A stretch of 46,835 bases of DNA from Patescibacteria group bacterium (lineage in GTDB: Bacteria; Patescibacteriota; Minisyncoccia; UBA6257; 02-FULL-45-10c): the NCBI GenBank assembly GCA_028865335.1, contig JAGWKK010000001.1, forward strand, positions 1-46,835, written 5' to 3'. Under the pieces are notes generated by a model that made no database searches, was not told where the DNA came from, and saw only the letters and a list, made by a program, of their open reading frames with translations. The translations under genes and the position numbers were made by a program. This document shows positions 5,438-30,119 of this stretch, one piece after another; positions within the stretch are counted from its first letter, which is position 1; every line of letters starts with the position of its first letter.

Positions 5438-5501
5438 TTTTACGACAACGCGTCTAGAGTTAATATCAGGGTAGGGGTCGAGGTTCGATTCCTTTTAAAT
5501 C

Positions 5502-5573
5502 GGGTGACTAGTTCAGTGGTAGAACGCTGTCCTGATAAGACAGAGGTCGCAGGTTCGATTCCTGCGTCACCCA
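5502..5573 (+). tRNA. tRNA-Ile (anticodon GAT)
   Basis: Manual cloverleaf: acceptor gggtgac/gtcaccc, D stem gttc/gaac, anticodon stem ctgtc/gacag with loop ctGATaa, T arm gcagg-ttcgatt-cctgc, discriminator A. CCA is not encoded. Confidence 0.9.
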
Positions 5574-5580
5574 CAAATAT

Positions 5581-5607
5581 AAAAAACCGGACTTGTTCCG
5601 GTTTTTT
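5581..5607. terminator. rho-independent terminator, bidirectional shape
   Basis: aaaaaaccgga-cttgt-tccggtttttt: a 5-bp GC stem flanked by an A6 run and a T6 run. Confidence 0.7.
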
Positions 5608-5610
5608 ATA

Positions 5611-5761
5611 TTTTGCGCAGGAATCGAACCAGCCGCACCCCATATCAGGAAGGAATGGGAAACCGCAGGTGTCCCAGAAGGGGGTCGGGGTGCGGCGTGG
5701 TTCGAGTGAGCGAGCGGGCTATCCAGCCGCGAGTGAAACTTTCATTCCTGCGTCACCCACA
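5611..5761 (+). repeat. structured module bounded by inverted and direct copies of the tRNA-Ile 3' end
   Basis: 5615-5630 gcgcaggaatcgaacc is the reverse complement of the tRNA T arm (15/16 match). 5744-5761 attcctgcgtcacccaca repeats tRNA positions 5558-5575 exactly (18 nt). Inside, cgaaccagccgcacccc pairs with ggggtgcggcgtggttcg. A gggaaacc...gtccc hairpin is homologous to the module at 33436-33572. Confidence 0.7.
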
Positions 5762-5772
5762 GAAATGACGAT

Positions 5773-5801
5773 TTGACTTATAGCATATAATATGCTATAT
5801 T
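5773..5801 (+). promoter_or_regulatory. sigma70-type promoter of the orphan gene 5871..6359
   Basis: TTGACT (5773-5778), 17-nt spacer, TATATT (5796-5801). Confidence 0.6.
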
Positions 5802-5870
5802 CTACTCAGCAGTACATCACGGGCAACCGTGAAATCCTGGATGCCGAAAGGCACATGAAGGGAGGAAGTC

Positions 5871-6359
5871 ATGACGAACGAGAACGAGAAGGTCGTCAAC
5901 GGGCACCGCGTCAAGACGGGCGAGCCCGGCGAGAACGGGACGAAGTCCAACGAGCGGCACATCCTCAGGCAGATCCACGAGAAGCGCAAGCAGGACAAGC
6001 TGCAGCTCGTGAAGGTCAACGAGGCCGCGCGGGCGCTCCGGTCGCCGGCGGACCAGATGGCCGTCTTGGACGACCGGCTCGGCGAGGGCATGGGCGCGAA
6101 CAAGGAGCGGCTGCGTCTCGAGATCGCGAGGGCGGAGCTGAGCCTGAAGGGGCTCGACGGCCGCAAGGGTTCGATGGACCCTTCGTACCTCAAGAGGGAG
6201 ACCGCGTACCTCCAGGACTTCATCCGGCGCCGCAAGGCGGAGCTCGAGAAGGTCAAGCTGGAGAACCGCGGCTACCGCGAGATGCGGAAGTTCGGCCTCC
6301 GTCCGCGCGAGCACGCGTACGAGGAGATGCCGGCGACGGCCCTCGCCCAGGTCGCCTAA
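5871..6359 (+). CDS. hypothetical protein (162 aa, K/E/R-rich), orphan cassette C1
   Basis: Strong SD gaagggaggaagtc before the ATG. It has its own promoter and terminator. The segment is GC-rich, so three other long ORFs overlap it on both strands. This frame was chosen because of the SD and a plausible composition. Confidence 0.55.
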   Translation: MTNENEKVVNGHRVKTGEPGENGTKSNERHILRQIHEKRKQDKLQLVKVNEAARALRSPADQMAVLDDRLGEGMGANKERLRLEIARAELSLKGLDGRKGSMDPSYLKRETAYLQDFIRRRKAELEKVKLENRGYREMRKFGLRPREHAYEEMPATALAQVA

Positions 6360-10477: not shown

Positions 10478-10677
10478 ACCACGTAGTGAGCCTGCGATAC
10501 TCTTCGCAGAATTTAATTTACTTTGAATTATAACTGATTACTGTTCGTACGATAAACATTTCTGCCAGGCAGACACGGGGCGAAGAGGATTAAATTCCCA
10601 TCGCAGGTCTACTACATGGCATATATATAAAAATACCATTTTTGTAGGACGCCCCCTAATGAGTATTTTTTTGAAAA

Positions 10678-10706
10678 TTGACAGAATCATATATAGATGA
10701 TAGTAT
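10678..10706 (+). promoter_or_regulatory. consensus sigma70-type promoter of orphan gene 10832..11419
   Basis: TTGACA (10678-10683), 17-nt spacer, TAGTAT (10701-10706). Confidence 0.65.
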
Positions 10707-10712
10707 GTTTCT

Positions 10713-10831
10713 AATCGTCGAGGGCTGCGAAGTCCCGACGGAGACGTACTTTGACGTTGGTTGCGGAAAGCAATCACCCTCAGCTCGCGGGCAGCGAGAA
10801 GTCGTCCGGCTAACAGCCGGAGGAGAGTGCC
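10713..10831 (+). promoter_or_regulatory. structured 5' leader (three hairpins), homologous to 29396-29494
   Basis: Stem 1 is cgtcg (10716-20) with cgacg (10736-40). Stem 2 is ctcgc (10784-88) with gcgag (10794-98). Stem 3 is tccggc (10805-10) with gccgga (10816-21) and overlaps the SD ggagg (10819-23). Compensatory changes relative to the second copy are described in the findings. Confidence 0.55.
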
Positions 10832-11419
10832 ATGAAATACGGAGACCTGACACTTGGAAAAGCGGAAGCGATCGTGAACAAGCTTGGCGGCATGGAGGGC
10901 GTGAAGCGCTTCCTGGCCGGGGAGTTGGAGTTGGTGGAAGCAGCTAAGCCAGCCTTCCCCACCTGGAGGACCGTCAAGCTCGGCACCGGCCTGAAGACCG
11001 CCACTGACTTCCGCAGCGCCCTCATGATGCACGGATACGAGGTGAGCGTCTACGCCAACAACCTTCTCGACAAGGTCGCGGTGGCGAACCAGGAGATCGA
11101 TGTGAACCTGGTGGATGTCTCGGCCGCGGAGCTCGGTTTTCCCAGGGGAGCCACCCGTGCGGAAATCTACCGTCGTGCCCACAAGCGTGGTCTGGAGCTT
11201 TGCCCTGCGGAAGTCGGTCCTCAGCTCCGTCTGCAGTACCCGGATCAACCGGATAACGAGTGGCGTCTGATCGCCATGAAGCCGCTGAACGGATCGGGCA
11301 GAGACTTCAGTACGTTCGTCGTCACTCGCATTGGCCCTAATCGATGGCTCAACGACTTCCTCATCGACCCCGCCCGTGTCTGGAACGCCGCCGCCCGGTT
11401 GGTGTTCGTCCGTCACTAG
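10832..11419 (+). CDS. hypothetical protein (195 aa), orphan cassette C3
   Basis: Own promoter, leader, SD and terminator. The N-terminal LGGMEGVKRFLAGELELVE resembles LGTAEGIKALLRGELVVRT of 29495..30058. From memory, the C-terminal LELCPAEVGPQLRLQY...RLVFVR resembles uncharacterised metagenomic proteins. Confidence 0.6.
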   Translation: MKYGDLTLGKAEAIVNKLGGMEGVKRFLAGELELVEAAKPAFPTWRTVKLGTGLKTATDFRSALMMHGYEVSVYANNLLDKVAVANQEIDVNLVDVSAAELGFPRGATRAEIYRRAHKRGLELCPAEVGPQLRLQYPDQPDNEWRLIAMKPLNGSGRDFSTFVVTRIGPNRWLNDFLIDPARVWNAAARLVFVRH

Positions 11420-11430
11420 AAGCGGACCAA

Positions 11431-11450
11431 CCTGCCTATCGGTAGGTAAA
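11431..11450. repeat. degenerate palindromic unit cctgcctatcggtaggtaaa
   Basis: Shares cctgcct..cggtag with the degenerate unit at 6476-6495. It lies between the stop codon and the terminator. The relationship is tentative. Confidence 0.4.
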
Positions 11451-11458
11451 CCTCGGTT

Positions 11459-11506
11459 CCTTCCGAGAAAGTGAAATCTTTCTCGGAAGGGCCGGGGTCT
11501 TTTTAT
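11459..11506 (+). terminator. terminator hairpin (13-bp stem) with a downstream T run
   Basis: ccttccgagaaag-tgaaat-ctttctcggaagg, then gccggggtcttttt. The loop and stem sequence resemble the terminator at 30066-30119. Confidence 0.6.
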
Positions 11507-20732: not shown

Positions 20733-20762
20733 GGTTTCACCCCGTCACCAGATCGAGCGCCG
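20733..20762 (-). repeat. repeat motif copy c with the adjoining cggcgctcga segment (empty site for the palindrome)
   Basis: The reverse complement cggcgctcgatctggtgacggggtgaaacc equals 8191-8240 minus the 20-nt palindrome, with one mismatch. Confidence 0.8.
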
Positions 20763-20818
20763 AAACGCCCCCTCGATGTCGACGATAGTAATCCTTTCGA
20801 GTAATAATTATATATTTT

Positions 20819-29360: not shown

Positions 29361-29389
29361 TTGACACCGAAATGGATATATGATATATT
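29361..29389 (+). promoter_or_regulatory. consensus sigma70-type promoter of 29495..30058
   Basis: TTGACA (29361-66), 17-nt spacer, TATATT (29384-89). Confidence 0.65.
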
Positions 29390-29395
29390 ACCTCC

Positions 29396-29494
29396 AACCA
29401 TCGAGGGTCACGAGATCCCGATGTTTGTACCTTGAGTACCCTTACTCGCGGATAGCGGGGAAGGATGTTCGGCGACTAGCCGAAGGGGTGTGTC
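29396..29494 (+). promoter_or_regulatory. structured 5' leader, second copy of the motif at 10713-10831
   Basis: Stem 1 is catcg (29399-403) with cgatg (29419-23). Stem 2 is ctcgc (29445-49) with gcggg (29455-59). Stem 3 is ttcggc (29468-73) with gccgaa (29479-84) and overlaps the SD gaagggg. Confidence 0.55.
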
Positions 29495-30058
29495 ATGGGT
29501 CAGGTCAATGCGTTGAAGGACTTCAAGCGCGGGCAGTTGGATGCCGCGCTGATGAAGATCGGTCAGGAGGCGGGGCTAGGAACCGCTGAAGGAATCAAGG
29601 CTCTTCTCCGCGGTGAGCTCGTCGTGAGGACGCTGGCGAGGTCTTTCAAGCATGACAAGACCTTGGTCGGCTGGAGTCTTCTTATCCCTGGTCCGAAGGT
29701 CGAAGAAGATTTCAGACCCGGCATTGTGGAGTTCCTCGATGGCGAAAATTCCATTTGCGACGAGGAGCTGAGGAAGCGGGCTCGGAATTTGGGAGCGAAT
29801 CTGGGCCAGGCCCACGCCGAGTATCTTCTGGAACGCCAGAACCGGATTCCGTGGGAGTACCGGGGGGATGACCTGGTTTTTCCGGCAACGGTTTGGAATC
29901 CGTCGGGCGGCGACCGTTACACCTCTGATTGCTACAGCCCGATCCTCGTTTGGAACGGTAGTTTTTGGGATTTGGGCTTTAATCGACTCGGGAACGGCTG
30001 GAATCATCACGCCCGCCTGGTCAAGGCTATGCAGCCTTTTCGTCGGAAGGCGAAATAA
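29495..30058 (+). CDS. hypothetical protein (187 aa), orphan cassette C6
   Basis: Its N-terminal segment is similar to 10832..11419, and it shares that gene's leader and terminator style. The C-terminal domain differs (W/G-rich ...VWNPSGGDRY...VWNGSFWDLGFNRLGNGWNHHARLV). Confidence 0.6.
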   Translation: MGQVNALKDFKRGQLDAALMKIGQEAGLGTAEGIKALLRGELVVRTLARSFKHDKTLVGWSLLIPGPKVEEDFRPGIVEFLDGENSICDEELRKRARNLGANLGQAHAEYLLERQNRIPWEYRGDDLVFPATVWNPSGGDRYTSDCYSPILVWNGSFWDLGFNRLGNGWNHHARLVKAMQPFRRKAK

Positions 30059-30065
30059 TCAACTC

Positions 30066-30119
30066 CCGGATCCCCTCAAGGAAGAGAAATCTTTCTTGGA
30101 GGGATCCGGCCCCTTTTTA
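30066..30119 (+). terminator. long-stem rho-independent terminator
   Basis: ccggatcccctcaaggaag-agaaat-cttccttggagggatccgg-type hairpin with 19 paired positions (1 mismatch, some G-U), then cccctttttat. Confidence 0.7.

Follow-up and report, generated by a model that had tools for sequence, protein, structure and literature searches.

A Patescibacteria-wide family of structured mRNA leaders adjoining the ribosome-binding site of modular protein genes

Why are two genes of one bacterium, with coding sequences no more alike than chance, preceded by leaders of the same fold? The question arises in a 46,835-nt stretch of DNA from a Patescibacteria group bacterium (GenBank assembly GCA_028865335.1, contig JAGWKK010000001.1, positions 1 to 46,835, forward strand), the whole of which is called the window here. 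Gene A (10832-11419) and gene B (29495-30058) both lie on the + strand, and the stretches directly upstream of them, 10713-10831 (copy A) and 29396-29494 (copy B), are the subject of this study. An initial annotation, made from the letters alone, had proposed that both stretches form a cis-regulatory RNA of three hairpins, the third of which sequesters the Shine-Dalgarno (SD) sequence. We found that the leader is a real feature and a new family of structured cis-acting mRNA leader, which is itself a known kind of element.

The reach of the element was studied with two covariance models, R1, built from 35 leaders with the two window copies included, and R2, built from 34 leaders of other genomes only. 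R2 recovered exactly two leaders in the window: copy A at 10775-10836 (47.7 bits, E = 3e-15) and copy B at 29436-29497 (24.6 bits, E = 8e-7), each directly upstream of the start codon. The next best site scored 8.3 bits. R1 also found only these two leaders in the window. Matches numbered at least 550 in metagenomes and 266 in genomes; in 160 homologous loci fetched from these two sources, R1 matched essentially every full-length gene A homolog, with about 95 matches at E < 1e-4, all of them ending at the ATG, and its few misses were divergent versions of the leader recognisable by eye. At the gathering threshold, Rfam 15 returned only six tRNAs from the window and only tRNAs from 20 homologous loci. 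Searching 10600-10900 at E up to 10 gave one spurious snoRNA match of 13.6 bits, and literature searches gave no description of this leader motif. On the basis of these comparisons, the leader is a Patescibacteria-wide family of structured 5' untranslated regions (UTRs) that was previously uncatalogued.

Two further sites had been grouped with the leaders in the initial annotation and do not belong with them. The 'shorter relative' at 5815-5843 matched neither model. The hairpin at 20752-20778 also matched neither, and folded at shuffle level (z = -0.9). The common 8-mer ATCGAGGG is expected to occur about 1.4 times in the window by chance (an arithmetical estimate).

The core shared by the family runs, from 5' to 3', through a hairpin termed P0, a C-rich block, an A-rich spacer of 1-5 nt, hairpin 2, an A-rich linker of 7-9 nt, hairpin 3 and the SD. 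Hairpin 2 has 4-5 bp and a G-G-R-N-A loop, and hairpin 3 has 5-6 bp and an N-A-N-N-A loop, closed by a C-G pair in 71 of 73 leaders. Covariation was assessed over the 11 pairs of hairpins 2 and 3 in this set of 73 distinct leaders. Paired cells made up 86.5% of the total, compared with 28-43% when the 3' partners were slid by 1-3 columns. Double changes were found in 163 cells against 60.7 +/- 5.6 in column shuffles, a count that none of 500 shuffles reached. Compensatory changes occurred at 10 of the 11 pairs, and all five pairs of hairpin 2 covaried. Paired positions that vary without compensation in further homologs would have spoken against the fold; what we found in these leaders was variation with compensation. 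The inner pairs included 15 G.U cells and only 3 A.C cells, as expected of a sense-strand RNA and not of a DNA palindrome, and the promoters upstream also speak for an RNA. About a dozen leaders form a subclass without C block and hairpin 2, which are replaced by a hairpin of 8-10 bp capped by a hairpin 3-like loop (UAAUA, UAGCA or UAGUA). Comparison between leaders thus establishes the structure, conservation and position of the element.

A pyrimidine block 1-5 nt upstream of hairpin 2 tracked the first three bases of the hairpin 2 loop. Loop and block were GGG and CCC in 49 leaders, GGA and UCC in five, GAG and CUC in one, and GGG and CUC, a G.U intermediate, in one. A further GGA/UCC lineage (L129, L157) has a 6-nt loop. 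With an alignment made independently of structure, the helix of loop and block was 90.7% paired, one pair changing from C-G to U-A in five sequences. A pseudoknot joining the C block to the first three bases of the loop is probable from this pattern. The distance from the end of P0 to the C block was 0-1 nt in 45 of 59 class I leaders, with P0 sequences that were very different. Such an arrangement would leave room for a compact H-type fold that stacks on P0 and consists of a 3-bp stem, a spacer of 1-5 nt, a stem of 4-5 bp and a 2-nt connector ending in A.

Next, the two window copies were compared part by part. Both leaders folded more stably than all of 200 shuffles (z = -4.2 for copy A and -3.2 for copy B) and into the same hairpins, confirming the three hairpins that had been annotated at these positions. 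Hairpin 1 lies at 10716-10740 in copy A (CGUCG-A-GGGCU GCGA AGUCC-CGACG; -15.7 kcal/mol, z = -3.0) and is predicted at 29399-29423 in copy B (CAUCG-A-GGGUC ACGA GAUCC-CGAUG). Its predicted shape is the same in both: 5 bp, a bulged A, 5 bp and a 4-nt loop. The annotated compensatory change in its outer stem, CGUCG/CGACG against CAUCG/CGAUG, was verified, and two further compensatory pairs were found in the inner stem (GGGCU/AGUCC against GGGUC/GAUCC), making three in this hairpin. Copy A is predicted to form an extra small hairpin at 10743-10758 (GACGU..ACGUU) that has no counterpart in copy B. The predicted P0 of copy A (10759-10775; GGUUGC GGAAA GCAAUC) ends 1 nt before the CCC block at 10777-10779, the proposed 5' strand of the pseudoknot, whose partner would be the loop GGG at 10789-10791. 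In copy B, P0 as read from the sequence (29427-29439; GUAC CUUGA GUAC) directly adjoins the CCC block at 29439-29441.

Hairpin 2, supported in both copies by folding and by the covariance-model match, spans 10784-10798 in copy A (CUCGC GGGCA GCGAG) and 29445-29459 in copy B (CUCGC GGAUA GCGGG). The annotated change from a U-A pair in copy A to U.G in copy B was correct. Hairpin 3, supported by folding and family covariation, spans 10805-10821 (UCCGGC UAACA GCCGGA) and 29468-29484 (UUCGGC GACUA GCCGAA), and here too the annotated compensatory change (UCCGGC/GCCGGA against UUCGGC/GCCGAA) was present. Reading of the sequence placed the SD of copy A at 10819-10825 (GGAGGAG; start codon at 10832) and the SD-like sequence of copy B at 29483-29488 (AAGGGG; start codon at 29495).

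How closely is the core tied to the ribosome-binding site (RBS)? In both window copies hairpin 3 and the SD overlapped by 2-3 nt. Across the family, hairpin 3 ended 0-5 nt before the SD in most leaders and overlapped it by 1-4 nt in about a third; the first SD-like 4-mer started within stem 3 in 27 of 73 leaders and at or past the end of the stem in 43 of 73. The predicted probability that the SD is unpaired was 0.20 in copy A and 0.08 in copy B. Copy A hairpin 3 is extended in the predicted fold to UCGUCCGGC/GCCGGAGGA, covering most of the SD (GGAGG), and in the predicted minimum free energy fold of copy B the C block pairs with the SD instead (ACCCUU with AAGGGG). For the family as a whole, the reduction in predicted SD accessibility was modest, 0.40 compared with 0.49 in upstream-shuffled controls (p = 0.005). 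Sequestration of the SD is thus marked in the window copies only, and the annotated sequestration by stem 3 is not a feature of the family, in which 43 of the 73 leaders have the SD outside the stem. Conserved anti-SD pairing by the 5' strand of hairpin 2 or by the C block was also considered and rejected: it exists in the window copies, but the family does not keep it, its stems covarying away from CCUC. No U tract follows the leader hairpins, making transcription attenuation unlikely.

Both leaders sit within complete transcription units. The promoter of copy A has TTGACA at 10678, a 17-nt spacer and TAGTAT ending at 10706, with a TG before the -10 box and 10 of 12 sigma-70 consensus matches (10678-10706, + strand); that of copy B has TTGACA at 29361, a 17-nt spacer and TATATT ending at 29389, with 11 of 12 matches (29361-29389, + strand). 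The leaders start about 7 nt past these near-consensus promoters, and the transcripts are expected to start near 10713 (A, from the promoter position) and near 29396 (B). Lying between promoter and start codon, the two stretches are 5' UTRs of about 119 nt (A) and 99 nt (B), with hairpin 1 about 3 nt or less from the predicted 5' end in both. Downstream of the genes are terminators, a hairpin of about 20 bp followed by a U run at 11450-11504 for copy A (+ strand; -36.6 kcal/mol, z = -5.8) and one of about 19 bp followed by a U run at 30066-30118 for copy B (+ strand; -31.4 kcal/mol, z = -4.6). The centre GAGAAAG..AAAU..CUUUCUC is common to both. With a promoter and a terminator each, the two cassettes are self-contained monocistronic units. 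Between the copies, identity was 72% in the promoter, 72% in hairpin 1, 70% in the core and 70% in the terminator hairpin, each of them higher than in all 200 shuffles. Coding sequences were 51-53% identical, which is shuffle level. The 3' ends are thus conserved like the 5' ends and the coding sequences between them are not.

Upstream of the core, the rest of the family differs from the window copies. Most homologs carry another hairpin 1, about 60-130 nt upstream of the ATG (L001-L163; for example L019 345-410 and L161 340-392). Its outer stem of 12 bp (GUNGUCAUAGCC / GGCUAUGACNAC) shows covariation at four positions and is separated by a small AA/CU mismatch from a variable inner stem (about 9 bp). 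Together they make up a duplex of about 22-25 bp that resembles an RNase III substrate. The canonical sequence of this hairpin 1, GUCAUAGCCAAAAG, is absent from the window. The 3' strand of this hairpin is the 5' strand of P0, which is often closed by a UACG loop, and since the strand is shared the two folds are mutually exclusive and may form a switch, one that the window copies do not have. At the predicted transcript start, just past the -10 box, nearly all genes of the superfamily carry an AGUUCYUUNA motif, whatever their leader type; in the window copies it is only faint (GUUUCUAA in copy A).

A second leader type was observed upstream of paralogs with other N-termini (L037, L046 with two genes, L055, L057, L062 and L063). 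In these the same long hairpin 1 is followed by AUGGCG..(SD in loop)..CGCCAUG, a covarying hairpin (AUGGUG/CACCAUG in L062) in which the start codon is paired. Most gene A orthologs have 3-7 copies of (C/U)UUGG(A/U) in the 3' UTR, repeated with a sharp 8-nt period, 61 spacings being exactly 8, and UUGG occurred 2.73 times per 80 nt after the stop codon compared with 0.38 in shuffles (L001-L160; for example L001 3098-3180). The repeats are absent from the window copies and partly present after a chimeric gene in L161. A multimeric RNA-binding protein could use such an array as its platform. A 3' UTR 'CUGUUUG' was considered by eye as a pairing partner of the hairpin 3 loop and dropped, as the pairing fitted some sequences only.

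Which genes follow the leaders? Gene A encodes 195 aa and gene B 187 aa; the product of gene A is recorded as KGI60_00060 of 'Patescibacteria group bacterium' (protein search). Neither is an orphan, as had been annotated. Protein A has more than 1,291 relatives and belongs to a well conserved family of about 198 aa that spans many lineages of the Candidate Phyla Radiation (CPR), including Nealson-, Niyogi-, Azam-, Wolfe-, Harrison-, Komeili-, Uhr- and Nomurabacteria, Paceibacterota and others. For protein B, a word-indexed search returned only the protein itself and an exhaustive HMMER search returned 597 relatives. Nor are the two proteins paralogous along their length, as they align only over the N-terminal 35-45 residues. 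A begins with an N-terminal module of the MKYGxLTxGQ..NKLGG type (MKYGELTLGQ..NKLGG..GEL) and B with one of the MGQVNxLKDF type (MGQVNxLKDF..EGIxAxLRGEL), and their C-terminal domains differ. Chimeras join these parts in other combinations: P0124 has an A-type N-terminus (MKYGKLTMGQ..NKLGG) and a B-type C-terminal domain, and P0245 and P0254 have a B-type N-terminus (MGQVNxLKDF..) and two other C-terminal domains. By sequence comparison, the proteins are modular, with an N-terminal module and interchangeable C-terminal domains.

The leader follows the N-terminal module. Regardless of the C-terminal domain, the core precedes every gene with either module (A, B and the three chimeras, the leaders of P0124, P0245 and P0254 scoring 50.8, 36.5 and 34.3 bits with R1), and paralogs with an A-type C-terminal domain and other N-termini lack it. 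This distribution fits a functional tie between leader and module, such as autoregulation.

The function of the proteins was sought by domain and structure searches. Pfam, PHROG, NCBIfam and PADLOC gave no match for A, B or the chimeras. Genes with the leader had no conserved neighbours, and their products no enzyme or transporter signature. The AlphaFold model of protein A was good (predicted local distance difference test, pLDDT, 87), and its best PDB match was a weak C-type lectin likeness (mincle; E = 0.057, template modelling score 0.27-0.41); against a viral structure library it had no match, and apart from the lectin likeness its fold is unassigned. The model of protein B was poor (pLDDT 48), too low for a fold search. 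Homology between the C-terminal domains of A and B was rejected, since profile-profile comparison aligned the N-terminal module only. Among relatives of B (P0128, P0146 and P0232), the B-type C-terminal domain is also found as 2-4 copies in tandem and, in one instance, at the end of a PAS-PAS-HAMP sensor protein, the latter suggesting a domain for output or binding. A-type domain relatives were also seen on long contigs binned as Bryobacterales and Verrucomicrobiota. An RNA-level constraint on the conserved NKLGG codons, as a CUUGG pairing partner, was discarded because Leu codon usage there equals background.

To which known system does the leader come closest? The E. coli thrS leader, with two anticodon-arm-like hairpins upstream of the SD, and the rpsO leader, with a pseudoknot, are autoregulated translational operators. 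Judged by analogy, our leader would work most like thrS or the ribosomal-protein operators, and it is a member of none of the systems compared. It shares with thrS and rpsO hairpins or a pseudoknot immediately 5' of, or overlapping, the RBS of the regulated gene, and loops that are conserved while stems covary; the leader subclass has the same loop on both hairpins, as thrS does. It differs from them in having no sequence or Rfam similarity and in that the encoded proteins are not known RNA binders. The small H-type pseudoknot riboswitches preQ1-I, SAM-II/SAM-V and guanidine-III have, as our leader probably does, a short hairpin whose loop pairs with a neighbouring single strand; A-rich connectors and a place beside the SD are further shared traits. 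However, here the pairing strand lies 5' of the hairpin instead of 3', the conserved nucleotides differ, Rfam gave no match to them at E = 10, the genes are non-metabolic and the subclass has no pseudoknot. Guanidine-II (mini-ykkC), which the two-hairpin subclass resembles in shape, also places a tandem pair of small hairpins with conserved loops directly before the SD, but its ACGR tetraloops are absent here (GGGCA and UAACA in copy A, GGAUA and GACUA in copy B, GGRNA and NANNA in the family), no Rfam match was found and the associated genes are unrelated.

Hairpin 2 has the G-N-R-N-A loop on a short G+C-rich stem that is found in lambda and P22 boxB, where the GNRNA pentaloop binds N protein. 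Unlike boxB, the leader nearly always has G at position 2, its loop covaries in the first three bases with the upstream block, and there is neither an antitermination context nor a terminator within the leader. Because of this covariation with the C block, base pairing accounts for the loop pattern better than a GNRA-like fold does. Hairpin 1 of the window copies recalls an ompA-type 5'-terminal stabiliser, being within a few nt of the predicted 5' end, but this likeness accounts for hairpin 1 only and not for the conserved core beside the SD. A CsrA/RsmA leader, which would have GGA both in a hairpin loop and at the SD, was rejected because GGA is missing from about 40% of hairpin 2 loops (GGGCA in 24 of 73 and GGGUA in 5 of 73). 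A type III toxin-antitoxin system of the ToxI kind was also rejected, the leader having no tandem repeats and no U tract after any hairpin.

Taken together, we favour a cis-acting translational operator, probably bound by a protein and adjoining the RBS, a reading to which we give about an even chance. A trans-acting factor would recognise the conserved loops or the pseudoknot. This factor would most likely be a protein, possibly the product's own N-terminal module, and its binding would alter access of the 30S subunit to the adjacent, partly occluded SD and so set how well the downstream gene is translated. Near the predicted 5' end, hairpin 1 of the two window copies probably also protects the mRNA from 5'-end-dependent decay. 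The read-out by such a factor, its signal, the direction of control and the choice of regulation over a constitutive role are what we infer from the leader's architecture. The annotated cis-regulatory RNA therefore survives as a conserved, structured, sense-strand 5' UTR element; nothing points specifically to the riboswitch-like kind that was also suggested.

Several observations weigh against a protein-bound, pseudoknotted operator. Library searches recognised no RNA-binding domain in the proteins, fold searches were uninformative, and the alignment shows an N-terminal module that is not basic. Simple co-inheritance of the 5' end of the gene would explain the link between leader and module equally well. 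The alignment behind the 86.5% pairing and 163 double changes was fitted to the model, and the shuffle controls are inflated by sequence relatedness; plain MAFFT alignments gave the same two stems by RNAalifold and the same covariation picture. The pseudoknot counts 2-3 independent compensatory events only and is thus probable and not proven. It also has exceptions in copy B, where GGA faces CCC and two of three pairs are possible (GGG faces CCC in copy A), in L109 (AGG) and in L101, which has no C block, and the G-N-R-N-A pattern could instead reflect a GNRA-like pentaloop. Finally, no hairpin 1 of the window type turned up in the 166 loci fetched, so that its conservation amounts to two sequences only.

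The hairpins might instead be constitutive, stabilising the mRNA and fixing the context of the RBS for a constant translation rate. We consider this doubtful. Hairpin 1 of the window copies occupies the classical position of a stabiliser, and hairpin 3 mostly leaves the SD outside its helix, both as a constitutive leader would have it. For that purpose, however, stems alone would suffice, yet distant lineages have also kept the loops, the C-G closing pair, the C block and the spacers. The long hairpin is not terminal in most genomes, lying 25-35 nt from the predicted 5' end, and predicted SD accessibility is below that of shuffled controls, not above it.

A riboswitch, in which P0, the pseudoknot and hairpin 2 form a small aptamer for a metabolite or ion and the ligand shifts SD accessibility via hairpin 3, appears unlikely. 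A compact H-type pseudoknot with conserved unpaired A-rich spacers beside the SD is what small pseudoknot riboswitches look like, the strand shared by the long upstream hairpin and P0 in most other genomes gives exclusive folds as in expression platforms, and sequence is strongly conserved over very distant lineages. Against this, the genes encode modular small proteins with neither enzyme or transporter signatures nor conserved neighbours, unlike typical riboswitch regulons. The subclass replaces hairpin 2 and the C block by a long hairpin, which a fixed ligand pocket would not tolerate, the conserved bases are chiefly in hairpin loops, as in protein sites, and no Rfam riboswitch matched even at E = 10.

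Inverted repeats acting at the DNA level, as repressor operators or recombination sites, are very improbable: short inverted repeats near a promoter are present and palindromes too keep their symmetry by paired changes, but the excess of G.U over A.C is expected for sense-strand RNA only, the stems vary freely and the loops are conserved, the opposite of what a protein-DNA operator would show, the elements are found beside the SD, 70-110 nt past the -10 box, and the proposed pseudoknot has no DNA counterpart. Least credible is a remnant of recent duplication or gene conversion free of structural constraint, since the two copies in one genome, about 70% identical in promoter, leader and terminator, flank coding sequences diverged to noise, differ mainly in compensatory pairs and share their covarying fold with more than 70 distinct leaders of other genomes, a result that contradicts the mere duplication which the initial annotation had named as an alternative.

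The remainder of the window contains ribosomal protein L19, NAD-dependent DNA ligase and DUF4012 protein genes and six tRNAs, indicating cellular DNA. A phage or mobile origin of the leader was rejected, as a scan of viral contigs with the commonest core gave two matches, which is chance level; one was in a high-G+C phage without a model match and the other was hairpin 2 only. A repeat of the final 19 nt of tRNA-Ile (5502-5574) lies 186 bp downstream at 5744-5766 (91% over 23 nt), with an inverted copy of its T arm at 5616-5633 and a further T-arm fragment at 5481-5493. These repeats (5481-5766) could be att-like integration scars or tRNA gene remnants and lie just upstream of the promoter of the gene at 5871-6359. 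This gene encodes a charged 162-aa protein without a family match and has its own TTGACT-17-TATATT promoter. Its structured leader of about 65 nt (within 5776-5876; z = -2.3) is not a member of the leader family; its predicted fold pairs the start codon and places the SD in a loop.

Beyond the favoured translational operator, a bolder possibility that we hold only tentatively is a lineage-wide RNA control system of Patescibacteria in which the mRNA senses a protein or small molecule. Its parts would be the pseudoknotted operator; the 22-25 bp upstream hairpin that shares the P0 strand in most genomes, forming a two-state switch; the dedicated N-terminal module on interchangeable C-terminal domains; and the 8-nt-periodic CUUGGA array in the 3' UTR of most orthologs. 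If true, this would be either a riboswitch class or an autoregulatory pair of RNA and protein, new in both cases, and it would set the translation of a large multi-copy protein family in host-dependent bacteria.

Gene regulation in the ultra-small Patescibacteria is almost unexplored. A review considers translational control to be probably central to the CPR life cycle, with mechanisms unknown (PMC11665869). The leader described here is a strongly covarying, lineage-wide element with a defined fold beside the RBS, attached to a widespread, multi-copy and modular protein family. It would add a family to RNA catalogues in which CPR-specific elements are scarce, and gives a testable handle both on translation control in the CPR and on the function of this protein family.

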